A stretch of DNA of 32,050 nucleotides, taken from contig JBCCGX010000002.1 of assembly GCA_039029035.1 (NCBI GenBank), positions 1 to 32,050 of the forward strand. The letters are read 5' to 3'. The DNA comes from Acidobacteriota bacterium (lineage in GTDB: Bacteria > Acidobacteriota > Thermoanaerobaculia > Multivoradales > J023). The translations under genes were made by a program, and so were the position numbers. Every line of letters begins with the position of its first letter. Positions within the stretch are counted from its first letter, which is position 1. A model generated the notes under the pieces. That model did not search any database, had not been told where the DNA came from, and worked only from the letters and a program-made list of their open reading frames with translations. Below, in pieces: positions 1-19,413 of the stretch.

Positions 1-610
1 AGAGAATGCCACCGCCAGTGGCGGCGCGCCACAGGAGCTCCCCGGTGTCGGTGTGCAGCGCATAGACGTGGTGATCGAAGGCGCCAAAAATCACCCGTTC
101 ACCAAAGATCGCCGGCGAGGACTGCTCGCCGCCCGGGCCGAGCTCGTAGCGCCAACGCTCCTCGCCGCTCACTGCATCGAGAGCGTAGAAACGGTCGTCG
201 TCGGCACCGAAGAAAACGTTGCCATTGACGACCGACGGCGAAGCACGCACCAGAGCTCCGACCGGGAAGCGCCACAGCTCGCGGCCGGTGGTCGCGTCGA
301 GGGCAAAGAGGTGCTCGTTGAACGAGCCGACGAAGAGGCGTCCGTTCCACACCGTGGGGGACGATTCCACCTTGCCACCGGTATCGAAGCGCCACAGAAG
401 TTTAGGTTGGCGCAGGAGCGTGACTGGAGACAAGGCCCCGGTGCGCTCCATGTTGCCGCGAAACGTCGGCCACGGGGCGTCTTTGCCGGAAACCTTGGCT
501 GAGGGAGGCTCGGATGTTGCTGGCGCCTCTTTCAGCGCCTCTTCCGGTGCTTCACCGGCGCCGCCGCCACAGCCGAGGAGTGCGATCGCGAGCAACTTTA
601 GAGTCCGCAT
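1..610 (-). CDS. PQQ-like beta-propeller repeat lipoprotein (BamB/PQQ-enzyme-repeat fold), N-terminal ~203 codons; the 3' end lies beyond the left window edge
   Basis: Absent from the ORF track because it runs open to the window edge. My minus-strand translation from ATG 610-608 reads MRTLKLLAIALLGCGGGAGEAPEE..PWPTFRGNMERTGA..LLWRFDTGGKVESSPTVWNGRLFVGSFNEHLFALDATTGRELWRF..VNGNVFFGADDDRFYALDAVSGEERWRY..GERVIFGAFDHHVYALHTDTGELLWRA. It has a lipobox LLGC and three consecutive blades of the form (F/Y)ALD-x2-(T/S)G-x3-W. Confidence 0.85.
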   Translation of the reverse strand, partial: MRTLKLLAIALLGCGGGAGEAPEEALKEAPATSEPPSAKVSGKDAPWPTFRGNMERTGALSPVTLLRQPKLLWRFDTGGKVESSPTVWNGRLFVGSFNEHLFALDATTGRELWRFPVGALVRASPSVVNGNVFFGADDDRFYALDAVSGEERWRYELGPGGEQSSPAIFGERVIFGAFDHHVYALHTDTGELLWRAATGGGIL

Positions 611-651
611 GGATGGATTCTATCGGACAGGAGGAGACGGGGCTCTCGCTG

Positions 652-956: not shown

Positions 957-3900
957 CTAGCGCCGCCAGTCGCCGTAGACGGCGAAAGCAGCCCAATAGT
1001 AGGGATCACGAAACTCGGGCTCGGCGCGCAGCTCGAGTTGGGCTTGGCGGAGGGCGGCGGCCGGGTTGATGCGCTCCGGTCGTACGGGATCGGCCAGCAG
1101 GCGGCGATAGAAACGATCCATGAGTTCGGCCGCGGCGCGGTCCTGCACCCGCCACAGACTGGCGACCAGGCGACGGGCACCGGCAGCGAAGAAGCCGCGA
1201 GTGAGGCCGACGAGTCCTTCACCACGAACCTCGGGGCCGAGGGCGGTACGGCAACCGCTCAGCACCACCAGCTCGGCGTCGAGCTGTAGGTTGTAGATCT
1301 CGGGCAGGCGCAGGAAACCGTCGCGCGGCTTGCCGTCGACATCATGCATCGACAGCACCAGGGCCGAGAGCTCGGGGTGCTCCGCGTCGATAATGCCGTG
1401 CGTGGCGAAGTGCACCATACGATAGTCGCGCAGCCGTTCGCCTGCGACGGCGTCGAGGTTGGCGTCGAAGCCGAGAGACAAGGCCGCTTGATCTTTGCCG
1501 GCGTGCGCGGCGATGGCCTCGGCCTCCCAACGGCTCCAGGCCAGGCGCTCGTAAGCGAAGTTGCGCAAGCGGTGGCCGTGCAGCCTCACCGACGCCGCAA
1601 CGTCGGCTTCAGCCGTCAAGCTGCCGGAGCTGTCGAGCCTGGAGTCTGGCGGACCGAAGACCGGATCGGCCAGGATCGCCAGCCCTTTGGGTGCGGTGGG
1701 GCGAGTGGCCAGCGTTCGGCGCTGCACAGCCAGAGCCGAGGCGGAAGGGAGAGCGATGACTTCGTGGCGCGCGAGAAGGGGCTCGGAATCATCGAGAGGG
1801 TGCGGCAAGGCGGCGAAGGGTAAGTAATGTAGCGCGCCGTCGGCGACGATCACCAGCCGCTGATCCGTCAGGCGGTGGGCCACCGGGCTTAGGACGATTT
1901 CGCTCAGCTGGTGCAGCGCTGCGGCATCGGCGGCCTGCGCCCGCGGATCCAGTAAGCGTAGGCCCTCGTAGGCCCGGCGCGTCGTGGATTCGATCGCCGC
2001 CCGCCCGGGTAGCTCGAAGCTGTTGATCGCCTGGTCGGTCACCGACCACAGATAGGTCTTGTCTTCTCCCAGAGCGTATTGCAGCAGGAGAGTTCCCGGG
2101 TCGAGCAAGGCGCGAATCGCGCGAGCTCGCAGAGGCTTAGGATGGACGATAGCTCCCCAGGCCGGGCTCTGGCGACGAATCTCGTTGTCGATATCCTCCA
2201 GCTGGGTGAGGATCTCTCTTTCCTCGCCGGCCAATCGCTTGGCCTCGATCGACTTCTCCGGCTGACCGAAGAGTCGCCTGCGGCGCTCGGTTCTGAGGCT
2301 CAAGCGTTCGAGGAGCCCCTTCTGACGTGTGAGCAGGTCCCTGTTCGCCGTCTGCCTCAGGCCGGCTCTCGATTCCTTCAGCAGGTCGAGCAGGTTGCGT
2401 GCGCGAGCTCGTTCGCTGATCTCGAGAGCGTTTCCGGCCCATCCGCCGGTTGGGTCCAAGCGGTGCAGTCGCATCGCGAGGTCCATCGCCAGCTCGAAGG
2501 CGGTGGCATGTCGGGCCAGCAGGGAGGTCCGCAGCCCTAGGCTGTCGACATCGGCGCGGCGAGCCTCGAGCAGCTCGAGGGCGCGAGCAGAGTGTCGGTA
2601 GGCCGCGTGGATCTGCGGCCCGTCGTGTCCATCAAGCCTGATTCCCTTGGCGCGAGCCAGGGCCACGAGCGCTGCGCTCTCTCCGATCGCATCGCCGGTG
2701 GCGCGAAAAATCCCCAGAGCACGCTCGAGTTGTGCGATCGCCGCTGGCGCATCACCGGAGGCCCTCGACACTTCTCCCAGAACAGTCAGAGCGAGCCCCT
2801 GGCGCCATCGATGGGCGCCGTGTTCGAGAAGGGCCAGAGCGTCCTCGAGATACTCGGTGGCTCGTGTCAGTTGGCCGGACTCTTTCTCTACCCGTGCGAG
2901 ATCGATGAGCGTGGTGGCCTCACCCCTGCGATCGCCGTTCTCGCGCCATAGATCGAGAGCCTTCGAGTAGAGCTCGATCGCCGCCTGCTGCTCGCCCTGG
3001 GCGGCATGGGACAAGCCGAGATTGGACAGGGTGAGTGCTTCACCGCGTCGGTCCCCGGCCTTGCGTCGTAGAGCGAGAGCGGCTTGCAGAGTGCTGCGAG
3101 ATCGTGCCAAGTCGCCGAGCCGCCAGTAGGTCATTCCGAGGTTGTTGAGCACCCGGGCCTCGCCGCGGCGGTCGCCCAACTGGCGCCGCGCTTCGAGCGC
3201 CAAGCGGTAGGTTTCCAGGGCTTCCTGGAGCCGTCCGGTGCGGCGGTGTATCGAAGCCACGTTGTTCCAGACCGCTGCCTGCTGCTTGCGGTCGCCAGCG
3301 CGGTGGTGCAGCGCCAGCGCCAGCTGATAGTGCTGCAGAGCTTGCACCGGCTCGCCCAGTAGATCGAACACACCGCCGAGATTGTTCAGCACCCGTCCTT
3401 CCTGGCGGATGTCGCCGATCTGGCGGAAGAGTTGCAAGGCCTGCTGGTAGGGCAGCAGAGCTCCTTGGGGAGTCGTTCGGGCGTGCACCAGGCCGAGGTA
3501 ATTGAGGGTCCGAGCCTGCCCGGATCGATCGCCCAACTGTCGCCAGAGCACGAGCCCCTCTCGGTAGCGCTCTACAGCCTCTTCGGTCTCACCCAGGCGC
3601 CGGGCTACGGAGCCCATTTCGATCAAGGCGCGAGCCGTGCCGCGACGGTCCTCGAGACCTTGCCAGAGAGCCAGCGCCTGGCGAAGCTCGGTGAGGCCGG
3701 CCTGCGCCTGACCGAGCTTGCCGTGGATCATGGCGAGCAGGAAGTGGGTGCGGGCGACGGCTGCGTCTTGCTGCAGTCGCCGCCAGGCGACGAGGGCTTC
3801 TCGGAGCTGGCTCAGGGCCTGCGCGAGAGCCGCCGAGGTGTTCTCGACGTTGAGCCGCCCGGCCTCGCTGGCGGCCCGCTCGGCAGTCAGGCGGAGTCGA

Positions 3901-4367
3901 TCTTCGACACTGTCACCGACGCGTCGCTCGACACCGAGACTATAGCGGCCCGGCGCGACACCCGGTGCCGGAGAGCGGATCTCGACGACGTACTCGACAT
4001 CGGCCTTGGCCCGGAAGAGCAAGCTCTCACGACCCCATTGACCGTTCGGGTTGTCGATTTCGATCAACCCCGAGCCATCCGGGCCGAAGAGCCTGAGGAT
4101 CACATCGATTCCGCCTTGGGTCACCTCCAGGTACAGGTCTTCGTCACGATCCAGTGTCAGGGGGAAGCGATGGGCTTCACCGCCGGCCAGGGTTCGCGCG
4201 AGAGACGTGCCAACCTTGGGAAGGTGATGCTCCTCGTCGGCCCGAAGCCCGACCGCGGCAAGTGCGAGCCACATTGGCCACAAGACAAGGGTGGCCCTCA
4301 CCACCGGCCTATGTTTCGACCCAAGGCTGCCGGTGGCCCCGTCGCCGCCCTCAGCTAGCTCTAGCAC
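957..4367 (-). CDS. Exported TPR-repeat CHAT-domain (caspase-like, clan CD) protease, paralog 1
   Basis: 1136-aa ORF. GTG start at 4367 lies 3 nt after GGAGG; alternative GTGs at 4304/4301. Basic N-region followed by the hydrophobic segment LVLWPMWLALAAVGL (signal or anchor), then a beta-sandwich-like segment. More than 10 TPR-like units carry the recurring G(D/E)RxGEAxxLxNLG. C-terminal CHAT domain has His in HFATHG and Cys in VVLSGCRT. Confidence 0.95.
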   Translation of the reverse strand: MLELAEGGDGATGSLGSKHRPVVRATLVLWPMWLALAAVGLRADEEHHLPKVGTSLARTLAGGEAHRFPLTLDRDEDLYLEVTQGGIDVILRLFGPDGSGLIEIDNPNGQWGRESLLFRAKADVEYVVEIRSPAPGVAPGRYSLGVERRVGDSVEDRLRLTAERAASEAGRLNVENTSAALAQALSQLREALVAWRRLQQDAAVARTHFLLAMIHGKLGQAQAGLTELRQALALWQGLEDRRGTARALIEMGSVARRLGETEEAVERYREGLVLWRQLGDRSGQARTLNYLGLVHARTTPQGALLPYQQALQLFRQIGDIRQEGRVLNNLGGVFDLLGEPVQALQHYQLALALHHRAGDRKQQAAVWNNVASIHRRTGRLQEALETYRLALEARRQLGDRRGEARVLNNLGMTYWRLGDLARSRSTLQAALALRRKAGDRRGEALTLSNLGLSHAAQGEQQAAIELYSKALDLWRENGDRRGEATTLIDLARVEKESGQLTRATEYLEDALALLEHGAHRWRQGLALTVLGEVSRASGDAPAAIAQLERALGIFRATGDAIGESAALVALARAKGIRLDGHDGPQIHAAYRHSARALELLEARRADVDSLGLRTSLLARHATAFELAMDLAMRLHRLDPTGGWAGNALEISERARARNLLDLLKESRAGLRQTANRDLLTRQKGLLERLSLRTERRRRLFGQPEKSIEAKRLAGEEREILTQLEDIDNEIRRQSPAWGAIVHPKPLRARAIRALLDPGTLLLQYALGEDKTYLWSVTDQAINSFELPGRAAIESTTRRAYEGLRLLDPRAQAADAAALHQLSEIVLSPVAHRLTDQRLVIVADGALHYLPFAALPHPLDDSEPLLARHEVIALPSASALAVQRRTLATRPTAPKGLAILADPVFGPPDSRLDSSGSLTAEADVAASVRLHGHRLRNFAYERLAWSRWEAEAIAAHAGKDQAALSLGFDANLDAVAGERLRDYRMVHFATHGIIDAEHPELSALVLSMHDVDGKPRDGFLRLPEIYNLQLDAELVVLSGCRTALGPEVRGEGLVGLTRGFFAAGARRLVASLWRVQDRAAAELMDRFYRRLLADPVRPERINPAAALRQAQLELRAEPEFRDPYYWAAFAVYGDWRR

Positions 4368-4774
4368 TCACCTCCGTCACCGCCCTCTTCCGCTTCCCAG
4401 GTGCCCGGGTCGGGGTCTTCTCCCGGCAAACCAGGCCGTTGATAGAGCAGGCCCTTGATTCGTTTCTTGCCGAACATCGATGGCTTCCAGCGGTAGATGA
4501 CGAAGTCGCATGGGGGAGGCGATTCCCCGCCTTCCGTTTGCACGTTCGGGTTGACCGATCCACAGAGGGTATTGCCATCCGGGCTGGAATAGTCGACCTG
4601 CCAGAAGTTCGGGCCGGTATTCGGCACCACTGCGGTGACCTGCTTCGTGGTGCCCAGATGCTCGGGCGCAATGTCGATCTTCGGATCGCCGTCCATCGGC
4701 GGAGGGAGGATGGCCTTAGCCAATCCGCTTCGAGAGGTGACTTTCCAGCTACCGTACAAAGGGTGATCTGTCAT
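4361..4774 (-). CDS. Hypothetical 137-aa protein with an acidic Gly-rich C-terminal tail, in the operon between the anti-sigma and CHAT genes
   Basis: ATG 4774 is preceded by GAGGAA with a 5-nt spacer. It starts 9 nt after the anti-sigma stop, and its last codons contain the CHAT-1 RBS and start (7-nt overlap). I see no signal peptide and no family I can name. Confidence 0.75.
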   Translation of the reverse strand: MTDHPLYGSWKVTSRSGLAKAILPPPMDGDPKIDIAPEHLGTTKQVTAVVPNTGPNFWQVDYSSPDGNTLCGSVNPNVQTEGGESPPPCDFVIYRWKPSMFGKKRIKGLLYQRPGLPGEDPDPGTWEAEEGGDGGEC

Positions 4775-4783
4775 GGTGTTTCC

Positions 4784-5506
4784 TCACTTCTCAAGATTGT
4801 TGCGTTCCGAGTACTCACCGCGTCGCACACGGAAAGGGAACCGCATCACCTGCGGTGACCCGCCCGCTGGGCTCGACGGTGCCAGCTCCAGGGTGTAATC
4901 CGCCGCCTCGAGCCAGGTCGAGTGGATGCTGAGCACCACTTGACCAGCAGCATCGGGGGTTAGCGACTCGCTGTGCCAGAGGACAGGGCCCCCGGTCTGG
5001 ACGAGGCGACCTCGATACGATGCTGCGGCCGAGTCGGGGGGGAGTTGGAGAGCGAAGGCCATCCACTCGGGCTCGGAGGTCAACGTCAGCTGAACGCTGG
5101 GCTCGTCGCCCGGGGCAGAACGCTCCGGGCTGAGGACGATACCCGTGCCTGTCGGTCGCGGTGCCAAGGCCTGGTCGAGCTCGCCTCGCAGGTCGGAGAT
5201 CCGCGAACCGAGCCACACCGAAGGCAAGATCGCTACCGCTATGAGGCCGAGGACCAGGACGCCTTGCAGCGGCCGGCCGTAGCGCGCCAGCCAGGCGAGC
5301 ACGGCGCTCCGCGCCACGGTCTTTGTCCCTTCCTCGGCCGCCACTTCGCGCAAACCTTGCACCAGCCGCTTGCTGAGCTCGAGCTGTTCCAAGCACTGCG
5401 AGCAGTCGAGGTAGTGCTCCTCGAATTGCCCTGCCTCTCCGGCTGTGAGCTGGCCCAGCAAGTAGCGCTCCACGATGTTGTGCTCCTCGATGCTCGAGTG
5501 ATCCAT
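4784..5506 (-). CDS. Anti-sigma factor: N-terminal zf-HC2 anti-sigma domain, one TM helix, extracytoplasmic C-terminal domain
   Basis: MDHSSIEEHNIVERYLLGQL..EEHYLDCSQCLEQLE matches the H-x3-C-x2-C signature. TM helix is VLVLGLIAVAILPSVWLG. AAGGAG lies 6 nt upstream of ATG 5506. The gene sits directly downstream of the ECF sigma gene. Confidence 0.85.
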   Translation of the reverse strand: MDHSSIEEHNIVERYLLGQLTAGEAGQFEEHYLDCSQCLEQLELSKRLVQGLREVAAEEGTKTVARSAVLAWLARYGRPLQGVLVLGLIAVAILPSVWLGSRISDLRGELDQALAPRPTGTGIVLSPERSAPGDEPSVQLTLTSEPEWMAFALQLPPDSAAASYRGRLVQTGGPVLWHSESLTPDAAGQVVLSIHSTWLEAADYTLELAPSSPAGGSPQVMRFPFRVRRGEYSERNNLEK

Positions 5507-5609
5507 CGCCTGTCTCCTTAACCCGCTTGCCGACTTGAGTCGTGCGTTGGCGAGTCCCCGTCTACAGAGTGCATTATTCGGCGCGCTATCTCACCCGAAT
5601 TTGAAAATC

Positions 5610-6233
5610 TCATGTTTCAGCCTCGCTGAAGCCCGGCAGCCTCTGCCTCTTGTGGTAGCGCTGCACCAGATCCTTGAGCCGTCCGCGAGCCCGGTGTAGA
5701 ACGCGGTTGAAGTGGAGGCTGGAGAGGTCAAAGGCGGCGCAGATGTCTTCTTTACGGTGCTCGGCGATAAAGAAGCGAAAGAGGATCTGGCGGTCGCGCT
5801 CGGGCTCGAGCTCGGCCAGCAAACGGCGCACGATGGTGGCGTTCTCTTTTGCGAGCAGGCGAGCCAACGGGCTAGGCGCGGGATCGGGTGGCGGCGCCAC
5901 GTCGTCCGCACCGCCGCCCGAGACCGTTGGCTGTTTGACCCCTTTGCGGTATTCGGCGATGAACAGATTGCGCGCGATCTGACGGATGAAGGCGGCGAGC
6001 TTGTCGGGATCGCGCAACTCGCCGTCACGGACCTTCTCGAGTGCCAGCCTGAAGGTCTCCTGGTGCAGGTCGTCGGCCCGCGCCGGATCACGAGTGAGCT
6101 CGAGCAGCAGAAACTTGACACCGCGACTGAAGCGCTCGACCATCTCGACTTCGGCCTGAGCTTCGCCGGCCAAGATTCGGCGCACCAGCTCGGCGGGAGC
6201 CGCTGGGGAAGTCGGATCCAGAGGTGTCATCAT
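5610..6233 (-). CDS. ECF-type RNA polymerase sigma-70 family factor
   Basis: Region 2 (DDLHQETFRLALEK..FIRQIARNLFIAEYRK) and region 4 (RQILFRFFIAEHRKEDICAAFDLSSLHFNRVLHRARGRLK) are recognisable. The ORF is open to 6284, but the ATG-ATG pair at 6233/6230 gives a typical N-terminus, so the start is uncertain. Confidence 0.92.
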   Translation of the reverse strand: MMTPLDPTSPAAPAELVRRILAGEAQAEVEMVERFSRGVKFLLLELTRDPARADDLHQETFRLALEKVRDGELRDPDKLAAFIRQIARNLFIAEYRKGVKQPTVSGGGADDVAPPPDPAPSPLARLLAKENATIVRRLLAELEPERDRQILFRFFIAEHRKEDICAAFDLSSLHFNRVLHRARGRLKDLVQRYHKRQRLPGFSEAET

Positions 6234-6348
6234 CGACGCTGCAAGCGGTCTGAGCGGAATATGGCGAACCTCTCCACGATACATGAGATTGCCGTCCTCG
6301 TCGATGTGCTCGCGAACAATCCGAGTGGATTAAAATGTCGGCTGGGGA

Positions 6349-6374
6349 ACCGCTCGGCGCCGGCACCGAGCGGT
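6349..6374. promoter_or_regulatory. 9-bp inverted repeat in the divergent sigma/thioesterase promoter region
   Basis: ACCGCTCGG (6349-6357) / CCGAGCGGT (6366-6374) with an 8-nt loop, 40 nt upstream of ATG 6414. Function unknown; it could be an operator or a 5'-UTR hairpin. Confidence 0.25.
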
Positions 6375-6413
6375 ATCGTTTCGGGGTCGGTCGAATCTCG
6401 AGCAGGAGGTCGC

Positions 6414-6923
6414 ATGGAGGAGAGTGGACACGACGGGTCGCCGAAGGACGGGCTGCCGAAAGATGATTCGTCGGAGGACGACGTCCTCGCGGTCGCCCGT
6501 CGAATTTTCCAAGAGAAGGTCCCCTTCCATCGCACCCTCGGCTTCGAGATCGCGGTCGACACGGCCGATCGCGTCGCCCTGCGCTTCGATTTTCGCCAGG
6601 GTTTGATCGGTAACCCGGTGCGCGGTGCCCTGCATGGTGGGGTGATCTCCGCTGCCTTGGACTCGATCGGCGGCTTGGTCGCCTTCGTCGATCAACTGGA
6701 GAAGATGCCAGAGGCGAGCAGCGAAGAGAAACTGGCTCGCTTACGGCGCATCGGCACCGTCGACCTACGGGTGGACTACCTGCGGTCGGGCGTCGGCGAG
6801 TACTTCCTGGCGACGGGCGAGGTGCTCCGGGCCGGCAACAAGGTGGTGGTGACCCGCATGGAGTTGTGTAACGACGCAGGCACCAGGATCGCAGTTGGCA
6901 CCGGGACCTATCTGGTCAGCTAG
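6414..6923 (+). CDS. PaaI/hotdog-fold thioesterase family protein
   Basis: This is the C-terminal part of the 403-aa track ORF. ATG 6414 is preceded by AGGAGG (6404-6409). The motif NPVRGALHGGVISAALDSIGG plus the ..VVVTRMELCNDAGTRIAVGTGTYLV pattern is typical of PaaI-type thioesterases. Confidence 0.9.
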   Translation: MEESGHDGSPKDGLPKDDSSEDDVLAVARRIFQEKVPFHRTLGFEIAVDTADRVALRFDFRQGLIGNPVRGALHGGVISAALDSIGGLVAFVDQLEKMPEASSEEKLARLRRIGTVDLRVDYLRSGVGEYFLATGEVLRAGNKVVVTRMELCNDAGTRIAVGTGTYLVS

Positions 6924-7513
6924 CCTGCCATTCGTCCGTCGAGCTCGAGCTCGGCGGCGACGCCTTGCATTGCTTCCAGCACGTTGCCGACGTGTTGCCA
7001 GAGCTCCAGCTTGTCGTCGAAGCATTGCTGGCTGAACGCCGCGGCGGCTTCCTGGACTTCCTGACGGTCGACGGCGGCGCAGAAATGCTTGTCCTTCCAG
7101 TTGCGCTTGACCGACTTCACTTTCATTCGCCGCAGGTCCTTCTGCGGCCGCACGTAGGCCCCAGCGATGATGATGCCGGTGATCTCGTCGCAGGCGCAGA
7201 GGGCAAAGTCCATCGGTGCTGCGGGGTGCACTCCGCTACCGGCGGGGTTGTGGGCCAGGATCGCTTGCACGACCTCGTCGGGACAGCCACGCTGGCGCAG
7301 GATGGGGGCGCCCTCGGCAGGGTGCTGCTCGGTCGTCGGATGAATCTCCCAATCGAAGTCATGCAGGAGGCCGGCCAGACCCCAGGCCTCGGGATCGCCG
7401 TCCAGCTTCGGGGCATACCAGCGCATCGCTGCTTCGACGGCCAGCATATGGCGCCGCAGGCCAGCGTCCTGGACGTGCTCGGTCAAGATTTCCCACCCGG
7501 TCGCTCGATCCAT
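6920..7513 (-). CDS. HD/HDIG-superfamily metal-dependent phosphohydrolase
   Basis: Contains LAGLLHDFDWEIHP and ..VVQAILAHN. AAGGAG lies 6 nt upstream of ATG 7513; the upstream Arg-rich extension to 7627 looks non-coding. The stop overlaps the thioesterase stop (CTAG 6920-6923). Confidence 0.88.
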   Translation of the reverse strand: MDRATGWEILTEHVQDAGLRRHMLAVEAAMRWYAPKLDGDPEAWGLAGLLHDFDWEIHPTTEQHPAEGAPILRQRGCPDEVVQAILAHNPAGSGVHPAAPMDFALCACDEITGIIIAGAYVRPQKDLRRMKVKSVKRNWKDKHFCAAVDRQEVQEAAAAFSQQCFDDKLELWQHVGNVLEAMQGVAAELELDGRMAG

Positions 7514-7632
7514 CGCAGGCTCCTTGGTCATCTCTGGGGGGCGCGATCTTAGCAGGGACGGCCGACGGCGGTTCAACCTCGGCCGGTGATTCGATACCAT
7601 GGGCCGAGCTCGACGCACGCGGGACAATACCG

Positions 7633-12610: not shown

Positions 12611-15541
12611 TTAACAGCCCGCGCAGGGCTTTCCGATCAGGACGAAGGGGGCCCAATGGTAGGGCTGTGGATGGCTCTGGCGGAGCTCCAACATGGCTTG
12701 TCGCACCGCCTCCGCCCGGTCGTCGGTGGTGGCGAGCCGGCGGTATAGCAGGGTCATGAACTCGGCTGTCGAGGCGTCGTTGACATCCCACAAGCTCACC
12801 AGGGCGGAACGTGCGCCGGCGTAGAGCAGACCCCGGGTAAGGCCGATCAGCTCGTCACCGCTTTCGACCGCGTGGGTCCCCGTGGCGCAGCCGGACAGCA
12901 CCACCAACTCGGCCTCCAGCTCTAGCTGGTAGAGATCGAAGAGGGTCAAGCGCGAGGTACCCAGCTGGATGGCCGAGAACATCGGGTTGTCGAGCCGAAA
13001 GAAGCCGTGGGTCGCGATGTGCACCAGCCGACTGGACGGACCGTGGTCGCGCAAGCGGGCCTCGGTGGCCGCTTCGCCGACGAAGAGCTCGGAATCCGGC
13101 AGGGAAGCGGCTACGGCTTCTACTTCGTCGCGGATCTTCGGCGTCAGCTCGTCCGGCACTCCGAGCACCAAGGCGCCGGAGCTGGAGGCTTCGGGCTTGG
13201 CGCAGCACATGGCGAGAACGCTGGCACTCGGAGCGTAAGAGAGGGTAAAGCGATCGATCAGAAAGCGGTCGCCGTCCCAGAAGGCATGGAAGGGGAGGTA
13301 GTGCAATGCGCCGTGCGGCACGATAATCAGCCGGTCCGCTTCGAGGTGCTCTTCGATCGGCGCGACCAGGGCGTCATAGAGCTCACCGAGGTGCGCGAGC
13401 GCGTCGTGGTAGATCCTGGCGCCGAAGACCTCCAGGTAGTCCGGCGTGAGCTGGAACTTGGCCAGCTGGAAATGCAGCAGCTGTTGGTGGGATAGGACCG
13501 CATCGACTTTGCCCAGGGGTTGCACTGTGAGCCGATCGGCGCCAAGCACAGCGACGAAGAAGGTGCCGCGGGCAGCGAAGTACTCGAGCAACAGGGTTGC
13601 TTGAGGCAGCGCGGCGCGCAGAGTCTCGAGGTCGAGGCTGCCGGCGGCCTGCAGCGAGCCGAGCTCTAGGTCGCCTGAACGGATCTCGGCCAGGAGGCGT
13701 AGGACGCGCTCTTCCTGCTCGCGGCAACGCTGCCGCAGATGCGGCAGGTCGCTGGCCGAGACCGCTGTGGGGGTCTCGGTCTGTCGCGGCGCGGTGGCAT
13801 CACGCCGTCCTGTCGGCTCGGCCTGCCGGGCGAGCTTCGATTCGCACAAGTTGATCTGGCGGTAGGTCCAGTTGAGCTCCTCGCGGCGTTGGCGAAGCTC
13901 ATCGACCAGCGCCTGGTGGCTGTGTCTCGCCGCCGGCAAAGCATCGGCGCGGAAGGCGACGAGGTCGGCCAAGCTGCGCGACTTCGCCTGCTCCATGTAG
14001 AGCAGGGCGGCGGCCTGGTCGTCGGCGCTCGGCGCGTCGGCCAAAGTCATCCAGATCAGACTCTCGTAGATCTCGTATTTGTCTTCCAAGAAGGCGATCT
14101 TGAGCTCTTCACCGCGCAGATGGCTGTGCAGGTCTTCCAGCGCCTCATGGGCTTGACGAAAGGTCGCGAGGGCTGCCAGACGATTGCCCAGCGCCTCTTC
14201 CACCTGGCCGAGCAAGTGATACGCGCGGCAGGTCGTGGCCGGTACTTCGATCGCCTGCAACTGCGCGAGAGCCGAGAGGCAAAACTCCCGGGCGGCGCGC
14301 GGCTTGTCTTGGGCCAGTTCGAGGCGAGCCAGGAGCAGTTGGCACAGAACCGCCTTGCCGGCCTGGCCGAAGCGCCGGAAGCGCGCCATCGCTCGGTCAG
14401 CCGATTGCCGGGCTGAAGAGAAGTCTCCTTGCTGTTCGAGGATCAGGGCTCGATAGAGGTCGATCGTTGCCGGCCAGATCCGGTTGCCCTCTTGGCGGAA
14501 GAGCTCGTGTGCCTGGGCGAAGAGCTCGAGCGCCTGTTGCACGACGCCCTGCCGGCCAGCGGCGATGGCGCGGAAGGTCATGGCCTTGGCGGCTTCATAG
14601 CCGTTGCCGAGCTTCTCGAAAGCAGTGAGAGCCCGGTCGGCGAAGTGCGCGCCGTCGGCCGTCAGATTGAGCTCGAGATAGATTTCGGCCTGATCGAGGT
14701 CGCACAGAGAGCTATGGTAAGGATCGGCCAAGTCGGCTAGCTGGTGGCGCGTCTTGCGGTAGAGCTCGAGGGCGCGAATGTACTGGCCGCGCAGGAAGTA
14801 GAGGTAGGCGATGTTGTAGTCAGCCTGGGCAGCAACGGGCCACATCTCATGCTGCTGGCAGTGGTCGGAGAGCTCTTCGTAGGCCGCCAGAGCAGCGGGA
14901 AGCTCGGTCAGCCCGATCCGGCAGACGGCGATGTTGTAGAGTGCCGCGGCGACGTCTTGGGGCTCACCGTCGGTACGAAAGGCGGCCAACACGCGCTCGA
15001 AGCGTTGCAAGGCTTCGCCGAGCTGGCCTTGTCGCATGAAGATCTGCGCTTCGTTGCTGTCCAGCCTGGCGAGCAGCAGCGGTTCCTTGTGTTGCTCGAA
15101 GATCTCCCGCGCCGCGACGGCAGCGGTGAAGGCCGCTTCGTAGCTCCCGACCAGGATCAGTGCGTGGATCGAGCTCGACAACGTGATCGCCGCATCGACC
15201 TCGGCGCCCTGGGCTTGGAAGAGCCGGGTGGCGGCACGGTAGTGCTCGAGGGCGCCGTCGTAGCGCCCGGCGACATAAGCCAGGTTGGCGAGGGACTTGG
15301 CGGCCAGGGCGCGGCCAAAGTCGTCGTCCAGCTCGTCCGCCAGCCAACGGCTGGCGCGCGCCAGCCGCTCGGCCAGCTCACGATCCTGGCGCAGGGCCTT
15401 GAGGACTTCTTGGCTGAGCCGTTCGAGAGCCGTGCGGTTGCGCAGACTCGGGCGTCGGGCGAGCAGCTCGGCTCGTTGGGCATCGCCCTCCAGATGGGCC
15501 AGCTCGTCGATCCAGCGGCCTAGCTGCCCGTCGGTCGCCAA
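12611..15541 (-). CDS. Cytoplasmic TPR-repeat CHAT-domain (caspase-like) protease, paralog 2
   Basis: 976-aa ORF. TTG start at 15541 has GAGGAA 5 nt upstream; there is no in-frame ATG for about 170 codons. It has no signal peptide, a long TPR-like helical-repeat N-half, and a CHAT domain with His in HIATHG and Cys in VVLSGCATG. Confidence 0.95.
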   Translation of the reverse strand: MATDGQLGRWIDELAHLEGDAQRAELLARRPSLRNRTALERLSQEVLKALRQDRELAERLARASRWLADELDDDFGRALAAKSLANLAYVAGRYDGALEHYRAATRLFQAQGAEVDAAITLSSSIHALILVGSYEAAFTAAVAAREIFEQHKEPLLLARLDSNEAQIFMRQGQLGEALQRFERVLAAFRTDGEPQDVAAALYNIAVCRIGLTELPAALAAYEELSDHCQQHEMWPVAAQADYNIAYLYFLRGQYIRALELYRKTRHQLADLADPYHSSLCDLDQAEIYLELNLTADGAHFADRALTAFEKLGNGYEAAKAMTFRAIAAGRQGVVQQALELFAQAHELFRQEGNRIWPATIDLYRALILEQQGDFSSARQSADRAMARFRRFGQAGKAVLCQLLLARLELAQDKPRAAREFCLSALAQLQAIEVPATTCRAYHLLGQVEEALGNRLAALATFRQAHEALEDLHSHLRGEELKIAFLEDKYEIYESLIWMTLADAPSADDQAAALLYMEQAKSRSLADLVAFRADALPAARHSHQALVDELRQRREELNWTYRQINLCESKLARQAEPTGRRDATAPRQTETPTAVSASDLPHLRQRCREQEERVLRLLAEIRSGDLELGSLQAAGSLDLETLRAALPQATLLLEYFAARGTFFVAVLGADRLTVQPLGKVDAVLSHQQLLHFQLAKFQLTPDYLEVFGARIYHDALAHLGELYDALVAPIEEHLEADRLIIVPHGALHYLPFHAFWDGDRFLIDRFTLSYAPSASVLAMCCAKPEASSSGALVLGVPDELTPKIRDEVEAVAASLPDSELFVGEAATEARLRDHGPSSRLVHIATHGFFRLDNPMFSAIQLGTSRLTLFDLYQLELEAELVVLSGCATGTHAVESGDELIGLTRGLLYAGARSALVSLWDVNDASTAEFMTLLYRRLATTDDRAEAVRQAMLELRQSHPQPYHWAPFVLIGKPCAGC

Positions 15542-17301
15542 AATAGTTCCTCAGCATTCCACAGCGTGTGATGCGGCAGGACCGCAGGACGAAAGTTACC
15601 CAGGCTCGACCGAGCACCGACCAGGACGTTGGGGCTCACTAGGCTGAGGACCGGCAGATTCTCGGCCACCAACTCTTGCACTCTGTGGTAGCGTTCCCGC
15701 CGGGCCTCGAGATCGAGGGTGGAGCGTTGCTCGTCCATGAGTCGGTCGATCTCGGCCTGCCAGGCGCCTTCTGGCGCCTGACCCAGGCGCCAGAAGTGAT
15801 TGCTCCCGGAAGAGGTCAGCACACTGACCATGGGATTGGGGCCGCCGCTGCCACCGCCTAGAGCGATCAGACATAACTCGTAATCGAAGCTCTGCAGCAG
15901 GCGTTCGGAAACGGCGCCGAGGCTCAGGGCAGCAACTCGAACCTCGACACCCAATGGGCGCAGATCCTCCTGGATGACAGTGGCGGCCGCCGTCATTTCG
16001 GGCCGGCTGGCGACGGTCAACAGCGACAGCTCCACCCGTTGCCCGCGGTCGTCGTGCAGGCGGCCGGCGTCATCCCAGCCAAACCCGGCCCCGGCGAGCC
16101 GCCGCCGGGCGTCCTCCAGTGAGGTCTTTGGCGGCACCAGATTGGCGCTAGGCCAGTCCCTGCTGCCGGGAGAAACGAGCGCCGCCAGAGGTGTTGCTCG
16201 ACCCTGGAAGACCAGGCGCACCAGGCCTTCGACATCGATCGCTGCGCGCATCGCCCGGCGGAAGGCCAGCTGGCGGAACCAACGCTGCTTGTCCGCAGTG
16301 TTGGGCAGGCCCTTGGATGTGAGGTCGTTGAGGTTGAAGAACAGGAAGTAGAGGTCGAGGCCGGCGCCCAAGTCTGCGAGCTGCAGCTCGCTTTGTGACG
16401 CCTGCCGGTTGAGCAAGGCGAAGTCCGCTGGACTGATGCGATCGGCGATGTCCAGGTCGCCAGACATCAAACGCAGGGTCTGGGCCTCCTTGGCGACGAA
16501 GAGAAAGACTAGCTTATCGAGGTAGGGTAGTGGCTGGCCGGCGGCGTCGCTCCGCCAGTAGAAGGGGTTGCGCTCCAACACCAACCGTTCGCCTGGAACC
16601 ACCTCGCTCAGGCGGAAGGGGCCCAGTCCGGCGATGTCTTGGGGGGCCACATCGAGGCCCCAGGCTTGACGCAAGTGGCCCGCCCGGTAGATCGGCTCGA
16701 GGCGATGGCGGGGCAGGATGGCGATGCCGTCGAACAGGCGTTCGCCAGCGGCGTAGGGTTCCGCTAGCTCGACCTCGACCGTCAGGTCGTCGATTCGCCG
16801 CACGTCTGGTGCCACGCCGCCGACCCGCAAGAGGGCGCGTTCAGGGGAGCCGATGGCTTCATCGAGGTAGACCTCGAAGGAGAAGAGTACGTCATCAGCC
16901 GTCGCCGGATGCCCATCCGAGAAGCGCAGGCCGGGGCGCAGCTGCAGGGTGATGCGCCGCCCGTCTGGTGTCGTCTCCCAAGACTCGGCCAGCGCCGCCA
17001 CGGGCTCCTGGGTCCGACGATCGATGTGCACCAGATTGGCCGTCATGCGATGGACGATCGCGCGCGACTGAAGATCAGTGACGAGCACTGGGTTGAGCGT
17101 CAAGGGCTCGGCCGAGAGCGCGACCACCAGACGCCCACCGGAGTGCCCGATCTCGACCGTCTCGCCAGAGGCCGATCGAACAGGAACCTCGGCCGGCGGC
17201 GTGGCTGGTCGAGTGCACGCCAGAATAGCTAGCAAGGCCGCAGTCAACCGCCAGCGCGGCGCGGCTTGGGCGCGCAGCTCTTTCCCCTTCCCTATTTGCA
17301 T
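15520..17301 (-). CDS. Family-5 (peptide/nickel/opine type, DppA/OppA-like) ABC substrate-binding lipoprotein, orphan
   Basis: The lipoprotein signal ..RLTAALLAILAC is followed by typical SBP_bac_5 content (TLNPVL, LRFSDGHP.TADDV, ERNPFYW). I prefer ATG 17301; GTG 17310 is also open. The stop at 15520 lies 22 nt inside the CHAT-2 ORF. Confidence 0.92.
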   Translation of the reverse strand: MQIGKGKELRAQAAPRWRLTAALLAILACTRPATPPAEVPVRSASGETVEIGHSGGRLVVALSAEPLTLNPVLVTDLQSRAIVHRMTANLVHIDRRTQEPVAALAESWETTPDGRRITLQLRPGLRFSDGHPATADDVLFSFEVYLDEAIGSPERALLRVGGVAPDVRRIDDLTVEVELAEPYAAGERLFDGIAILPRHRLEPIYRAGHLRQAWGLDVAPQDIAGLGPFRLSEVVPGERLVLERNPFYWRSDAAGQPLPYLDKLVFLFVAKEAQTLRLMSGDLDIADRISPADFALLNRQASQSELQLADLGAGLDLYFLFFNLNDLTSKGLPNTADKQRWFRQLAFRRAMRAAIDVEGLVRLVFQGRATPLAALVSPGSRDWPSANLVPPKTSLEDARRRLAGAGFGWDDAGRLHDDRGQRVELSLLTVASRPEMTAAATVIQEDLRPLGVEVRVAALSLGAVSERLLQSFDYELCLIALGGGSGGPNPMVSVLTSSGSNHFWRLGQAPEGAWQAEIDRLMDEQRSTLDLEARRERYHRVQELVAENLPVLSLVSPNVLVGARSSLGNFRPAVLPHHTLWNAEELFWRPTGS

Positions 17302-17492
17302 GGTTTCCACCCAGCACTGATTCTATGAAAGAACCGGTCCTGCGGCAGGTGTCTTGGAAATATTTCAGTGATCCCTGTGTGTTTATTCTCCTACCGACCA
17401 TTCGGCACGATGTCGTCGCTCAATTTGAGACCGCTCGATTTTCTATTGCCAATATCTTGGTGGTGGCTATATTTCAAGGTTTTCTCGGTCGA

Positions 17493-17596: not shown

Positions 17597-17970
17597 CTTT
17601 TTTGTCAGGTTGAGATCATCAAATGGATTTGTCGAGAACACAAGACAGGGACTGATCGAACGCATAGTCAAGAACTTGACTGTTTATCGGCGCATTGTTT
17701 CGGCGATGCGTCGTTCGAGGCCGGATGCTCGGGCATGGTCGTCGCGAGCTGCTGGCGAACAGGTTCCCGCGTCAGCGCCCTCCGGGTTGACTTCGGCCTT
17801 CATCCGCAGCGAGCCGATTCGACCGAAATCTCCTCATCGGTTCTCCCGGGGGGCGCTGCTTTTTCGAGACCTGGATGATCGGCAGGTGACGCGTTTGGAT
17901 CGGCGGTCTGAATTGGCTCCCGTCGACATCGACTCACAACGTCGCAACTGGCAGAAGATAGGAGGGTTTG

Positions 17971-19413
17971 ATGTTAGCTCGTACCACCCGTTCGTTGCTC
18001 CTTATCGTCGTTCTCGCACCCTTGGGGCTCGCACCCGCACTAGCGCAACCGCCAACTTCGCCGCCCGACAACGACTTCATCCTGCGCGGCTCGGCGACGG
18101 GCCTGGCGTCGGTTCTGGCGAGCCACGGGCTGACCGAGATCGACCGCCTCGACTCGCAGCCCGCGGGGGAGGATGTCTGCCTGGTGCGCGCCGACGCCAT
18201 GGCGGATCCGCAGCAGGTGGTTGACGACCTGAGCCTCGAGCCAGCGGTCAACGCGGTGGAAGAAGTCTTGCTCGCCAACCTACCGGAGACCTACAGCAGC
18301 ATGGACCTCGAGCCGCTGATGTCGGTCGTAACCGGGGCGCTGGGCGACGCCAGCACCGTGGCTTTCGGTACCGATGCGGCGGGGAACAGTCGCTCGGTCT
18401 GGACCAGCTATGTCGATCAGACCGCTGCCCAGATCCTTCGAATCAGCGAAGCGCAGAGTACCTATGACGGTAGCGGAGCGATCGTCGCGGTCATCGACTC
18501 CGGCATTGACCCTGACCACCCGCTCTTCGCCGGCCACTTGGTACCGGGCTACGATTTCGTCTTGGATCAGCCCGGAACCGCGTCCGAATGGTCTCTACTC
18601 AACGAGTCGAGTATGGCGATCCTCGGCGAGTCTTCGATGGCGATTCTCGGCACCGAGGATACGGTGCGGATCAATGAGTCGTCGATGGCGATTCTTGGTG
18701 ATCATCAGGCCAACGATCTGGTGGTCGAAGACATTCCGCCTGCCTTCGGCCACGGCACCATGGTCGCAGGCATCATCCACCGTGTCGCGCCGGGCGCCAA
18801 GATCATGCCGCTGCGGGCTTTCGACGGCGACAGTACCGCCAGCCTGTTCAACATCGTGCGCGCTATCCACTACGCGGTAGACAACGGTGCGACGGTGATC
18901 AACATGAGCTTCAGCCTCGAGACTTTTTCTTGGGAGCTGGTGCGGGCAGTGGGCTACGCTCTGTCGAACGGTGTGAGGCTGATCGCTTCGGTGGGCAACG
19001 CTGGCAGCAACATAGTGGTCTTCCCTGCCGGCTTGCTCGGCGTCTTCGGTGTCGCGTCGTCGGACGATGTCGACAGCCTGAGCGGCTTCTCCAACTTTGG
19101 TCTGCTTCAGGCGACCATCGCGGCGCCGGGCGAGAACGTGATCACGGCCTACCCGGGCGGCGGTTGGGCAGCAGCTTCCGGTACCTCGTTCGCCGCGCCC
19201 TGGGTCAGCGGTGCGGTCGCCTTGTTTGCCGACAAAAGGGGAAGTGGTGGTCCAGGCGAGGTGAGGACGCTCGAGATCCTCAGTGCTCTCGGAGCGGACG
19301 ATCCGCTTTATGGGGCCTCACCCAACAGTGTGTTCCACGAACGGCTCGACATCAAGGCGGCCCTCGACTCAATTAGCGAGGGGGGCGCAGGACCGTGGTG
19401 GTGGGGTAATTGA
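17971..19413 (+). CDS. Secreted subtilisin-like serine protease (peptidase S8)
   Basis: GGAGGG lies 4 nt before ATG 17971 (TTG 17968 is also open). The signal peptide is MLARTTRSLLLIVVLAPLGLAPALAQ. The catalytic triad motifs are VAVIDSGID (Asp), HGTMVAGI (His) and GTSFAAPWVSG (Ser). Confidence 0.95.
   Translation: MLARTTRSLLLIVVLAPLGLAPALAQPPTSPPDNDFILRGSATGLASVLASHGLTEIDRLDSQPAGEDVCLVRADAMADPQQVVDDLSLEPAVNAVEEVLLANLPETYSSMDLEPLMSVVTGALGDASTVAFGTDAAGNSRSVWTSYVDQTAAQILRISEAQSTYDGSGAIVAVIDSGIDPDHPLFAGHLVPGYDFVLDQPGTASEWSLLNESSMAILGESSMAILGTEDTVRINESSMAILGDHQANDLVVEDIPPAFGHGTMVAGIIHRVAPGAKIMPLRAFDGDSTASLFNIVRAIHYAVDNGATVINMSFSLETFSWELVRAVGYALSNGVRLIASVGNAGSNIVVFPAGLLGVFGVASSDDVDSLSGFSNFGLLQATIAAPGENVITAYPGGGWAAASGTSFAAPWVSGAVALFADKRGSGGPGEVRTLEILSALGADDPLYGASPNSVFHERLDIKAALDSISEGGAGPWWWGN
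18604..18699 (+). repeat. In-frame 24-nt periodic repeat inside the S8 gene encoding ESSMAILG three times (units 1, 2 and 4; unit 3 = TEDTVRIN)
   Basis: Unit 1, 18604-18627: gagtcgagtatggcgatcctcggc. Unit 2, 18628-18651: gagtcttcgatggcgattctcggc. Unit 4, 18676-18699: gagtcgtcgatggcgattcttggt. Every nucleotide difference among the three units is synonymous. Confidence 0.9.

Follow-up and report, generated by a model that had tools for sequence, protein, structure and literature searches.

Among described systems, the closest to the locus reported here is that of DdvA from M. xanthus, a zinc-binding anti-sigma (ZAS) factor whose periplasmic part is a tetratricopeptide repeat (TPR)-CHAT region of ~900 residues with a His/Cys dyad (Bernal-Bernal et al. 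2024, PMC11506125). Removal of the periplasmic domain leads to RseP-dependent degradation of DdvA; the bulky domain blocks RseP, and the CHAT protease was proposed, not shown, to clip the linker as a site-1 protease ahead of RseP (PMC11506125). DdvA-like proteins were reported only from Myxococcota and one Comamonas, in a search designed for fused proteins only (PMC11506125). Cytoplasmic systems in which a protease sets a sigma factor free are Craspase, CalpL/CalpT/CalpS, and the SAVED-CHAT/PCaspase systems with their small inhibitor PCi (bioRxiv 10.1101/2023.06.23.546230). Here we describe a four-gene module at positions 957-6284 of a 32,050-nt stretch of Acidobacteriota bacterium DNA (assembly GCA_039029035.1, contig JBCCGX010000002.1, positions 1 to 32,050; hereafter the window), in which a sigma factor of the extracytoplasmic function (ECF) class, its membrane anti-sigma factor, a small acidic protein and an exported TPR-CHAT protein are encoded separately. 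We favor the reading, held at somewhat less than even confidence, that this is a self-contained extracytoplasmic signaling module, a split, two-polypeptide counterpart of DdvA/DdvS in which the CHAT protease would cut the anti-sigma factor in trans. The initial annotation, made from the sequence alone, had treated the idea of CHAT as a site-1 protease as novel, which was less so than assumed, as the core idea that CHAT frees the sigma factor is already published for DdvA; what is new are the separately encoded partners and the small-protein family. Our literature search found no description of a separately encoded TPR-CHAT partner of an anti-sigma factor, and the ECF reclassification paper (Casas-Pastor 2021), as far as its main text goes, does not mention CHAT; the supplements of that reclassification or the ECF Hub may carry a context note.

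The module consists of four co-directional minus-strand open reading frames (ORFs):

5610-6284, minus strand: ECF sigma factor, 224 aa in its longest ORF; ATG 6233 is an equally possible start
4784-5506, minus strand: predicted single-pass ZAS-type anti-sigma factor, 240 aa
4361-4774, minus strand: small acidic leaderless protein, 137 aa
957-4367, minus strand: TPR-CHAT caspase-like protein, predicted to be exported, 1136 aa

All four lie exactly where the initial annotation had put them, its sigma start at 6233 being one of the two possible. Its 9-nt spacer between the anti-sigma and small genes was read from the DNA as well, and its 7-nt overlap between the small gene and the CHAT gene holds if the latter starts at GTG 4367 (GTG 4304 and 4301 are alternative starts). 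The further claim that each downstream gene has its ribosome-binding site inside the preceding gene fails for the anti-sigma gene, which begins 103 nt beyond the sigma gene with its AAGGAG within that spacer. Homologous loci show similarly tight junctions, with overlaps of 4-13 nt or gaps of 6-7 nt. The arrangement had been called Cas-independent, and it is: no cas gene or CRISPR array was found in the 32-kb window, and neither Csx30/31, Cas7-11/gRAMP nor a crRNA array in the window or any related locus.

The features of the TPR-CHAT protein are as follows:

4239-4316, minus strand: predicted signal peptide or signal anchor, aa ~18-43 (KHRPVVR-ATLVLWPMWLALAAVGLRA/DEE), from the hydrophobicity peak and charge distribution
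3921-4205, minus strand: predicted N-terminal 8-stranded beta-sandwich, aa 55-149, from strands in the AlphaFold2 (AF2) model with a predicted local distance difference test score (pLDDT) of ~90; conserved in the alignment of homologues
2148-3908, minus strand: TPR superhelix, aa ~154-740, from Pfam TPR_12, TPR_1, TPR_2 and other matches and ~30 consecutive helices in the AF2 model
972-2093, minus strand: CHAT protease domain, aa 759-1132, with PF12770 at aa 817-1133
1398-1400, minus strand: catalytic His990, in HFATHG
1251-1253, minus strand: catalytic Cys1039, in VLSGC

The match to PF12770 is strong (E=2.3e-66, 224.6 bits), and TPR_12 matches in six stretches (E=6e-49). The dyad, reported as intact from the first inspection, proved invariant among 30 homologues of 39-59% identity (H990 together with G991, and C1039), and the domain with its intact His-Gly...Cys dyad places the protein among the clan-CD CHAT proteases by sequence. 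The basic stretch and hydrophobic segment noticed earlier at the N-terminus are likewise present (residues ~18-41), and a Sec-type leader, with a basic n-region and a hydrophobic core of 12-20 residues, was recognized in 28/30 homologues, one of the two exceptions being an N-terminally truncated gene call; the CHAT family is therefore predicted to be exported. In the AF2 model, computed as a monomer (pLDDT 86, predicted TM-score 0.83), the leader forms an isolated helix at residues 25-39. Foldseek matched this model best to human separase (3.8e-18), DdvA (8rw5, 3.5e-15; 8rot, 2.7e-13) and Csx29 (7y84_C, 1.1e-13; TM-score for Csx29 up to 0.60), which assigns the modeled protein to the separase/DdvA/Craspase fold class. 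Sequence searches of the PDB returned TPR proteins only for the full-length protein and nothing for the CHAT domain alone; only in the predicted fold does a likeness to DdvA, Csx29 and separase show. Relatives are numerous (>411 proteins at E<1e-30) and come from sources named Acidobacteriota, Thermoanaerobaculia, Holophagales, Blastocatellia and some cyanobacteria. Two loops of the model, 914-936 and 1041-1050, have pLDDT <50, the latter directly after Cys1039, and both may be flexible parts of the active site or of its regulation, in the manner of the L-loops of caspases or the three-helix region discussed for DdvA.

The sigma factor matched Sigma70_r2 in Pfam (E=3.8e-8, 33.4 bits against a cutoff of 24) and, over residues 44-205, the NCBIfam model TIGR02937 for ECF sigma-70 factors (48.9 bits against 42.9). 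With sigma2 and sigma4 regions only and an ECF-level model above threshold, its sequence identifies it as an ECF (group 4) member of the sigma-70 family; SigR and SigH are the nearest relatives with solved structures. Orthologues of this sigma factor adjoin the anti-sigma gene in all related loci. The features of the anti-sigma factor are the following:

5321-5506, minus strand: cytoplasmic anti-sigma domain (ASD), aa 1-~62, with the ZAS motif, helical in the AF2 model
aa ~78-113, minus strand: predicted transmembrane helix, hydrophobic core 82-100, where KD hydrophobicity peaks at 2.31
4820-5146, minus strand: predicted periplasmic Ig-like beta-sandwich, aa 121-229, eight strands in the AF2 model
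5120-5161, minus strand: juxtamembrane periplasmic linker and first loop, aa 116-129 (P116, Q/R117 ... L125-S-P-E-R129-S), a candidate protease-recognition region

Domain searches suggested by the initial annotation recovered CHAT, TPR and Sigma70_r2; the expected zf-HC2 match stayed below the Pfam cutoff (16.8 bits against 22.2, for the single sequence), though the zinc-binding residues themselves are invariant. The family comprises 47 proteins, the window's and 46 relatives with identity down to 27%, and in an alignment of 28 of them H3, H31, C35 and C38 never vary. Their spacing, H3...H31-x3-C35-x2-C38, is that of the ZAS class, an N-terminal helical ASD with H/C-x23-26-H-x3-C-x2-C, and sequence and model together place the protein in ZAS class I. 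A profile of the family, searched against PDB sequences, found RsrA (0.0038), RslA (0.0059) and the N-terminal domain of DdvA (0.13). The AF2 model (pLDDT 86) has a helical ASD, a long helix at 78-113, a short low-confidence linker and a beta-sandwich at 121-229, to which Foldseek returned generic Ig-like matches only, with no functional clue. Across the 28 homologues P116 and R129 never change, Q117, L125 and P136 hardly ever do, and the PQ...L-SPER-S motif is kept even where a coiled coil of ~50 residues is inserted after the transmembrane helix. The lowest pLDDT of the model (61) falls at residues 111-120.

Taken with the CHAT leaders, the transmembrane helix and C-terminal beta-sandwich of the anti-sigma factor put the protease and the Ig-like domain in the same compartment, as the initial annotation had argued from the positive-inside rule; the TPR-CHAT body is predicted to be extracytoplasmic and to share the periplasm with the anti-sigma C-terminal domain. 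In an alternative, non-proteolytic role, TPR-CHAT would be a co-sensor or guard: bound to the Ig-like domain by way of its TPR array or beta-sandwich, it would keep a generic site-1 protease away from that domain until a ligand releases the guard. Such an arrangement would resemble the protection of RseA by RseB; for DdvA the bulky periplasmic domain has been shown to stand in the way of RseP-dependent degradation, TPR arrays serve as scaffolds for binding proteins, and the beta-sandwich correlates with sigma linkage (see below). Yet the dyad and its surrounding motifs are invariant across the 30 homologues, arguing for retained catalysis, and the folded periplasmic domain of the anti-sigma factor (~110 aa) could itself block a site-2 protease, and we regard a purely guarding role as improbable.

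The coupling of these genes is conserved. Among the anti-sigma-seeded loci with usable flanks (the window and the related loci L001, L002, L003, L005, L007, L009, L011, L012 and L095), a TPR-CHAT gene stands beside the sigma/anti-sigma pair in 10/10, and at least eight further anti-sigma matches are inferred to share contigs with close CHAT matches. The genes flanking these loci are unrelated to one another. From the other side, we screened 80 metagenomic loci seeded with CHAT genes of 32-43% identity, using iterated hidden Markov models built from these families, and found the same sigma and/or anti-sigma family within 4 kb in 24 of them; where at least 2 kb was available on both sides, the family was present in 12/32 loci and absent from 20/32. 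Gene order varies. The order sigma, anti-sigma, small gene, CHAT is found in the window, L001, L002, L003, L005 and L093, while CHAT, with or without the small gene, precedes sigma and anti-sigma in L009, L011, L012, L094, L095, L017, L029, L031 and others; in L027 and L028 CHAT and the small gene lie opposite a sigma/anti-sigma pair on the other strand, and in a further arrangement the anti-sigma gene is directly upstream of CHAT. Since the linkage survives rearrangement, we interpret it as functional coupling; the sequence survey indicates that the four-gene linkage is not due to chance, and the supposition that these genes form a conserved module was borne out across many unrelated contigs. 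The linkage is asymmetric: the anti-sigma family appears to need CHAT, and the CHAT family also works alone. A scan of GTDB genomes with a narrow anti-sigma alignment yielded one locus, so that breadth among isolate and metagenome-assembled genomes is under-sampled. L093 and L007 derive from one 8.8-Mb genome assembly, which makes two modules per genome possible.

The beta-sandwich follows the same linkage, being present in 19/20 sigma-linked and 10/20 unlinked CHAT homologues (Fisher p=0.003), in a comparison where loci are not phylogenetically independent and the unlinked set consists of long-flank loci only. This pattern bears on the alternative that CHAT is an output of the circuit, with the sigma/anti-sigma pair sensing an envelope cue in some other way and the operon delivering an exported protease, together with a small chaperone or inhibitor, as an effector whose targets for remodeling or degradation might be envelope or foreign proteins. 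Within the clade of the window, the sigma operon ends with CHAT and its genes overlap or nearly abut, which is typical of autoregulated ECF operons carrying their own targets, and most related CHAT genes function without a sigma partner. The small protein, moreover, tracks CHAT and not the sigma pair. A mere target would be unusual, however, in the position that CHAT takes in most sigma-linked loci, upstream of sigma or on the other strand, and the anti-sigma family was never seen without CHAT. The specific enrichment of the beta-sandwich in sigma-linked CHATs and the DdvA fusion, which argues for a physical partnership between anti-sigma factor and TPR-CHAT, also speak for more than an effector. 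On balance we judge the effector role unlikely, while taking it seriously.

Several loci depart from the standard arrangement in ways worth recording. In L007 a DDE transposase (an insertion sequence; 5452-6843, minus strand) sits between the sigma and anti-sigma genes of an otherwise intact CHAT-sigma-anti-sigma module, an insertion that may uncouple sigma from its inhibitor. L082 (7001-17318) shows the module locally amplified, with two tandem sigma/anti-sigma pairs after the CHAT gene and then another CHAT-like gene. L009 (14116-16461 to 12541, minus strand) and L095 (9215-10425 to 7636, minus strand) each carry, ~5 kb from the first, a second and different CHAT-sigma cluster that encodes a shorter CHAT protein (774-781 aa), a 96-aa protein whose start resembles a signal peptide, an ECF sigma factor of 162-199 aa and a 226-aa protein, which suggests that CHAT-ECF pairing arose in more than one architecture. 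The window itself encodes a second TPR-CHAT paralogue (12611-15541, minus strand; 976 aa; CHAT E=1.6e-69), lacking the N-terminal beta-sandwich and any sigma/anti-sigma neighbor, directly downstream of an SBP_bac_5 solute-binding protein gene (15520-17310, minus strand) that it overlaps by 22 nt, a hint that members of one protease family serve different partner systems. One database protein, P0092 (1331 aa), combines CHAT/TPR with Sigma70_r2, either as a read-through or mis-call of neighboring genes or as a genuine fusion.

The 137-aa protein belongs to a family that we could not place among known ones: it has no family match in Pfam, NCBIfam, PADLOC or the PDB, and a profile of its relatives gave nothing significant against the PDB and Pfam. 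A word-index homologue search found only the protein itself. That blank, together with the many spurious ORFs that high-GC DNA yields, would fit a skeptical reading in which the ORF is a non-coding artefact and the adjacency of the genes fortuitous. The blank was a false negative caused by fast divergence, as relatives were recovered by synteny, exhaustive phmmer and motif search. At every close homologous locus a small gene occupies the same slot, its product 27-46% identical and sharing an N-terminal GxW and a C-terminal DPxDPGTWEAEE (DPGTWEAEE in the window protein). In loci of the other gene order the small genes that stand between CHAT and sigma have diverged further but keep both end motifs. 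Syntenic small genes are 27-48% identical, and relatives in synteny occur in L001, L002, L003, L005, L093, L040, L027, L028 and others. Searching 1.84 billion representative proteins exhaustively with phmmer gave two true relatives, P0170 and P0173; three longer, multi-stretch matches (P0169, P0171 and P0172) were set aside as repeat or low-complexity artefacts, and a 190-aa gene of L007 considered as a homologue proved to be a sigma factor. The C-terminal pattern G[TSAN][WFI].A[EQHND][EDAN], required within the last 30 residues, matched only 9 of 6,690 ORFs from 92 loci and the window. For eight of the matches a CHAT gene is found on the same strand at a distance of 0-82 nt, and the ninth represents this gene on a contig that stops short of CHAT. 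The matches in L027 and L028 had played no part in deriving the pattern. Third-position GC of the ORF reaches 0.72 in its own frame and only 0.50 and 0.60 in the other two. With the module recurring in dozens of independent contigs, with syntenic small genes, a motif exclusive to CHAT-adjacent ORFs and the in-frame GC signature, the locus survey refutes this skeptical reading, to which we attach next to no credence. These sequence comparisons identify the 137-aa gene as real and fast-evolving, a member of an undescribed family that travels with the CHAT gene and carries a C-terminal G[TS]WxAE[ED] motif.

None of 15 members (the window's and 14 relatives) has an N-terminal leader, and none has a transmembrane segment apart from an internal hydrophobic stretch in L009; net charge ranges from 0 to -18 (-6 in the window protein), all but one being acidic. 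With no export signal the 137-aa protein should stay in the cytoplasm, and its sequence makes it probably cytoplasmic, so that it is unlikely to be a periplasmic substrate; the initial annotation had offered it as an alternative target of the CHAT protease, for which it makes a poor candidate. A leaderless, acidic product whose gene strictly adjoins CHAT fits better with a cytoplasmic chaperone or pseudosubstrate inhibitor acting on CHAT before export, a role we put forward with low confidence. Small inhibitors co-transcribed with cysteine proteases include the lipocalin-like staphostatins, Spi and the Bacteroides Bfi proteins (PMC2873492), and the title of one paper announces cytoplasmic control of a secreted protease zymogen. 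As in staphostatin/staphopain, Spi/SpeB, securin/separase and PCi/PCaspase, the small gene lies beside, and is co-transcribed with, the gene for a cysteine protease. Staphostatins are defined by a lipocalin-like barrel of eight strands whose binding loop holds a conserved Gly; the small protein has in common with them only its setting, an adjoining co-directional gene with a leaderless product, and a lipocalin-like GxW start, and has no sequence similarity to these inhibitors. We know of no counterpart to the C-terminal G[TS]WxAE[ED] motif in the staphostatin, Spi, securin or PCi pairs. In L031 (10237-10713) and L094 (9438-9917) a subfamily of 152-159 aa begins with F[VL]GTWYI and ends with GDP[ED]Q..VWG..G.PPP, not GTWEAEE; it may be a distinct specificity class of protease partner.

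From the observed gene content, conserved linkage, predicted topology, fold class and catalytic residues we infer the binding, the cleavage, its site and the role of the small protein as follows. The single-pass anti-sigma factor would retain the ECF sigma factor at the membrane through its cytoplasmic, zinc-binding ASD, and would offer its periplasmic Ig-like domain as the handle for exported TPR-CHAT. The TPR superhelix, the N-terminal beta-sandwich or both would read a periplasmic cue that activates the His990/Cys1039 site, and CHAT would then clip the anti-sigma factor in or near the juxtamembrane PQ...SPER-S region as a site-1 protease in trans. A housekeeping site-2 protease of the RseP type, with cytoplasmic proteases, would free the sigma factor to transcribe its own operon and a further regulon. 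Meanwhile the small acidic leaderless protein may act on CHAT in the cytoplasm before export, as a dedicated chaperone or a pseudosubstrate inhibitor, following the logic of staphostatin/staphopain, securin/separase and PCi/PCaspase. In-trans cleavage is favored by linkage that persists regardless of gene order and flanks, a shared predicted compartment, the invariant dyad, a beta-sandwich that tracks sigma linkage and invariant juxtamembrane residues; the DdvA fusion of ZAS domain, transmembrane helix and TPR-CHAT adds a Rosetta-stone link between anti-sigma factor and TPR-CHAT. The fuller proposal, that this is an in-trans DdvA circuit in which a periplasmic separase-like protein serves as a dedicated, signal-gated site-1 protease and a new securin- or staphostatin-like chaperone-inhibitor family silences it until export, is one we consider doubtful as a whole.

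A number of observations weigh against CHAT as the releasing protease or against parts of that proposal. Cleavage of an anti-sigma factor by CHAT is unproven even for DdvA, and co-transcription with sigma is equally expected if CHAT is an output of the regulon. About two thirds of related TPR-CHAT genes, including the window paralogue, have no sigma/anti-sigma neighbor, which implies that the protease family has other jobs. The SPER loop is modeled at pLDDT ~82, and its invariant residues may be structural instead of marking a cleavage site. No ECF promoter common to the 5' regions of the sigma genes emerged, k-mer pair enumeration (19 loci) and alignment (5 sigma-first loci) giving GC-rich noise. 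As for the small protein, sequence searches of PDB chains and Pfam detected no similarity to staphostatins or other inhibitors, and its gene is missing from several sigma-linked loci (L012, L017 and L029), which makes it accessory and not essential to the circuit.

Compared with DdvA, the window module has in common an ECF sigma factor, an N-terminal zinc-binding ASD, one transmembrane helix, a periplasmic TPR-CHAT region with a His/Cys dyad in the same fold class, and the hypothesized route of CHAT as site-1 protease followed by RseP. It differs in that anti-sigma factor and TPR-CHAT are separate, where DdvA is one polypeptide, so that cleavage would be in trans and not autoproteolytic. Its anti-sigma factor ends in an Ig-like periplasmic domain of its own, its protease carries a separate signal peptide as well as an additional beta-sandwich at the N-terminus, and a small acidic protein is added. 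The CHAT domains share no detectable sequence similarity and the ASD match is marginal. The DdvA type is characterized by a dimeric arrow architecture and a CHAT active site without the three-helix motif; the window CHAT was modeled as a monomer. The lineages differ as well (Acidobacteriota-type against Myxococcota), and there is no regulon of CRISPR or cyclic-oligonucleotide-based antiphage signaling (CBASS) near the window module. It is thus not a DdvA-type fused anti-sigma factor, being neither one polypeptide nor adjacent to a defense island; by sequence it does share the periplasmic TPR-CHAT with conserved dyad, co-encoded with an ECF sigma factor. The initial annotation had taken Craspase and Csx30 as precedent, and DdvA, with its periplasmic TPR-CHAT fused to a ZAS anti-sigma factor, is closer (PMC11506125). 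Type III-E Craspase (Cas7-11/gRAMP, Csx29, Csx30/Csx31 and CASP-sigma) has the TPR-CHAT fold in common (Csx29, E~1e-13) and, like the circuit proposed here, a caspase-like protease freeing an ECF-type sigma factor. The Craspase components are missing here and the presumed trigger is not RNA-guided, Csx29 is cytoplasmic whereas the window TPR-CHAT has an export leader, and the inhibitor is a classical ZAS membrane anti-sigma factor, unlike that of Craspase; the locus is not a member of the Craspase family. RseA/DegS/RseP and RsiW/PrsW/RasP likewise have a single-pass anti-sigma factor with a cytoplasmic ASD and an extracytoplasmic domain, a factor on which the site-2 protease can act only after a site-1 cut. 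Those site-1 proteases that are known belong to the serine proteases or metalloproteases and have their genes elsewhere, whereas the candidate here is a clan-CD caspase-like CHAT protein with a TPR sensor of ~600 residues, encoded in the same module.

A CBASS-CRISPR island is under the control of DdvA/DdvS, which gives protection from phage Mx4 (PMC11506125), and the release of a sigma factor by a protease recurs in the Craspase, CalpL/T/S and SAVED-CHAT systems, which raises the question of whether the window module is also an antiphage sensor, its periplasmic TPR-CHAT detecting a phage component and its sigma factor switching on defense genes elsewhere in the genome. This reading concerns biological role and is compatible with cleavage of the anti-sigma factor by CHAT. 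Against it, none of the four proteins has a defense-specific PADLOC match (the only matches were those of the CHAT protein to a generic TPR model and, weakly, to an oxidoreductase one), neither CBASS nor other defense-specific matches occur in the 32 kb, and the module's neighbors are housekeeping and two-component genes. Flanks differ at every locus, with no recurrent defense genes, and only a subset of DdvA-like pairs lie near defense systems (PMC11506125); many of those pairs, like the window module, are not beside defense genes. A role in phage defense therefore seems to us a rather slim prospect.

As protease and substrate would be on separate polypeptides, cleavage in such a split system can be assayed in trans with a Cys-to-Ala control and without first needing the natural cue, which could make the protease-frees-sigma mechanism proposed for DdvA directly testable; the beta-sandwich of CHAT and the Ig-like domain of the anti-sigma factor are the likely docking partners. 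The survey also indicates that the partnership of TPR-CHAT and ZAS anti-sigma factors is much more widespread than reported, extending to Acidobacteriota-type soil and marine bacteria, and the small-protein family may serve specifically to regulate separase-like proteases of bacteria. If the proposed circuit is correct, the site-1 proteases of ECF signaling, such as DegS, PrsW and similar enzymes, would gain a caspase-like class, and ECF sigma factors would be activated by caspase-type proteolysis as a general route beyond CRISPR and defense contexts, and well beyond Myxococcota.

The surroundings of the module are those of an ordinary chromosome, with genes for PolA, hybrid kinases, response regulators, a MacB/FtsX permease and a plain subtilase (17968-19413), and a scan for sigma-70 promoters and terminators gave no signal over background. 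About 340 nt downstream of CHAT lies a lipoprotein gene (2-619, minus strand; lipobox LLGC) that encodes beta-propeller repeats of the PQQ/BamB kind and is cut off by the start of the window. On the other side, a 4HBT thioesterase gene (~6430-6923, plus strand) diverges from the sigma gene, and the 3' end of an HD-domain protein gene (6920-7627, minus strand) overlaps the thioesterase stop. The lipoprotein gene is not conserved at other loci, and the thioesterase and HD-domain genes are not conserved beside the module there. Elsewhere, Peptidase_S8 genes with PatG_D/PatG_C domains, resembling cyanobactin-type macrocyclases, lie a few kb downstream of the module (L003 13489-15681, L093 10334-12532, L007 11022-12965 and L008 3369-5258), in L007 and L008 amid several ORFs of 79-125 aa, and may belong to a cluster for ribosomally synthesized and post-translationally modified peptides that recurs near these modules.

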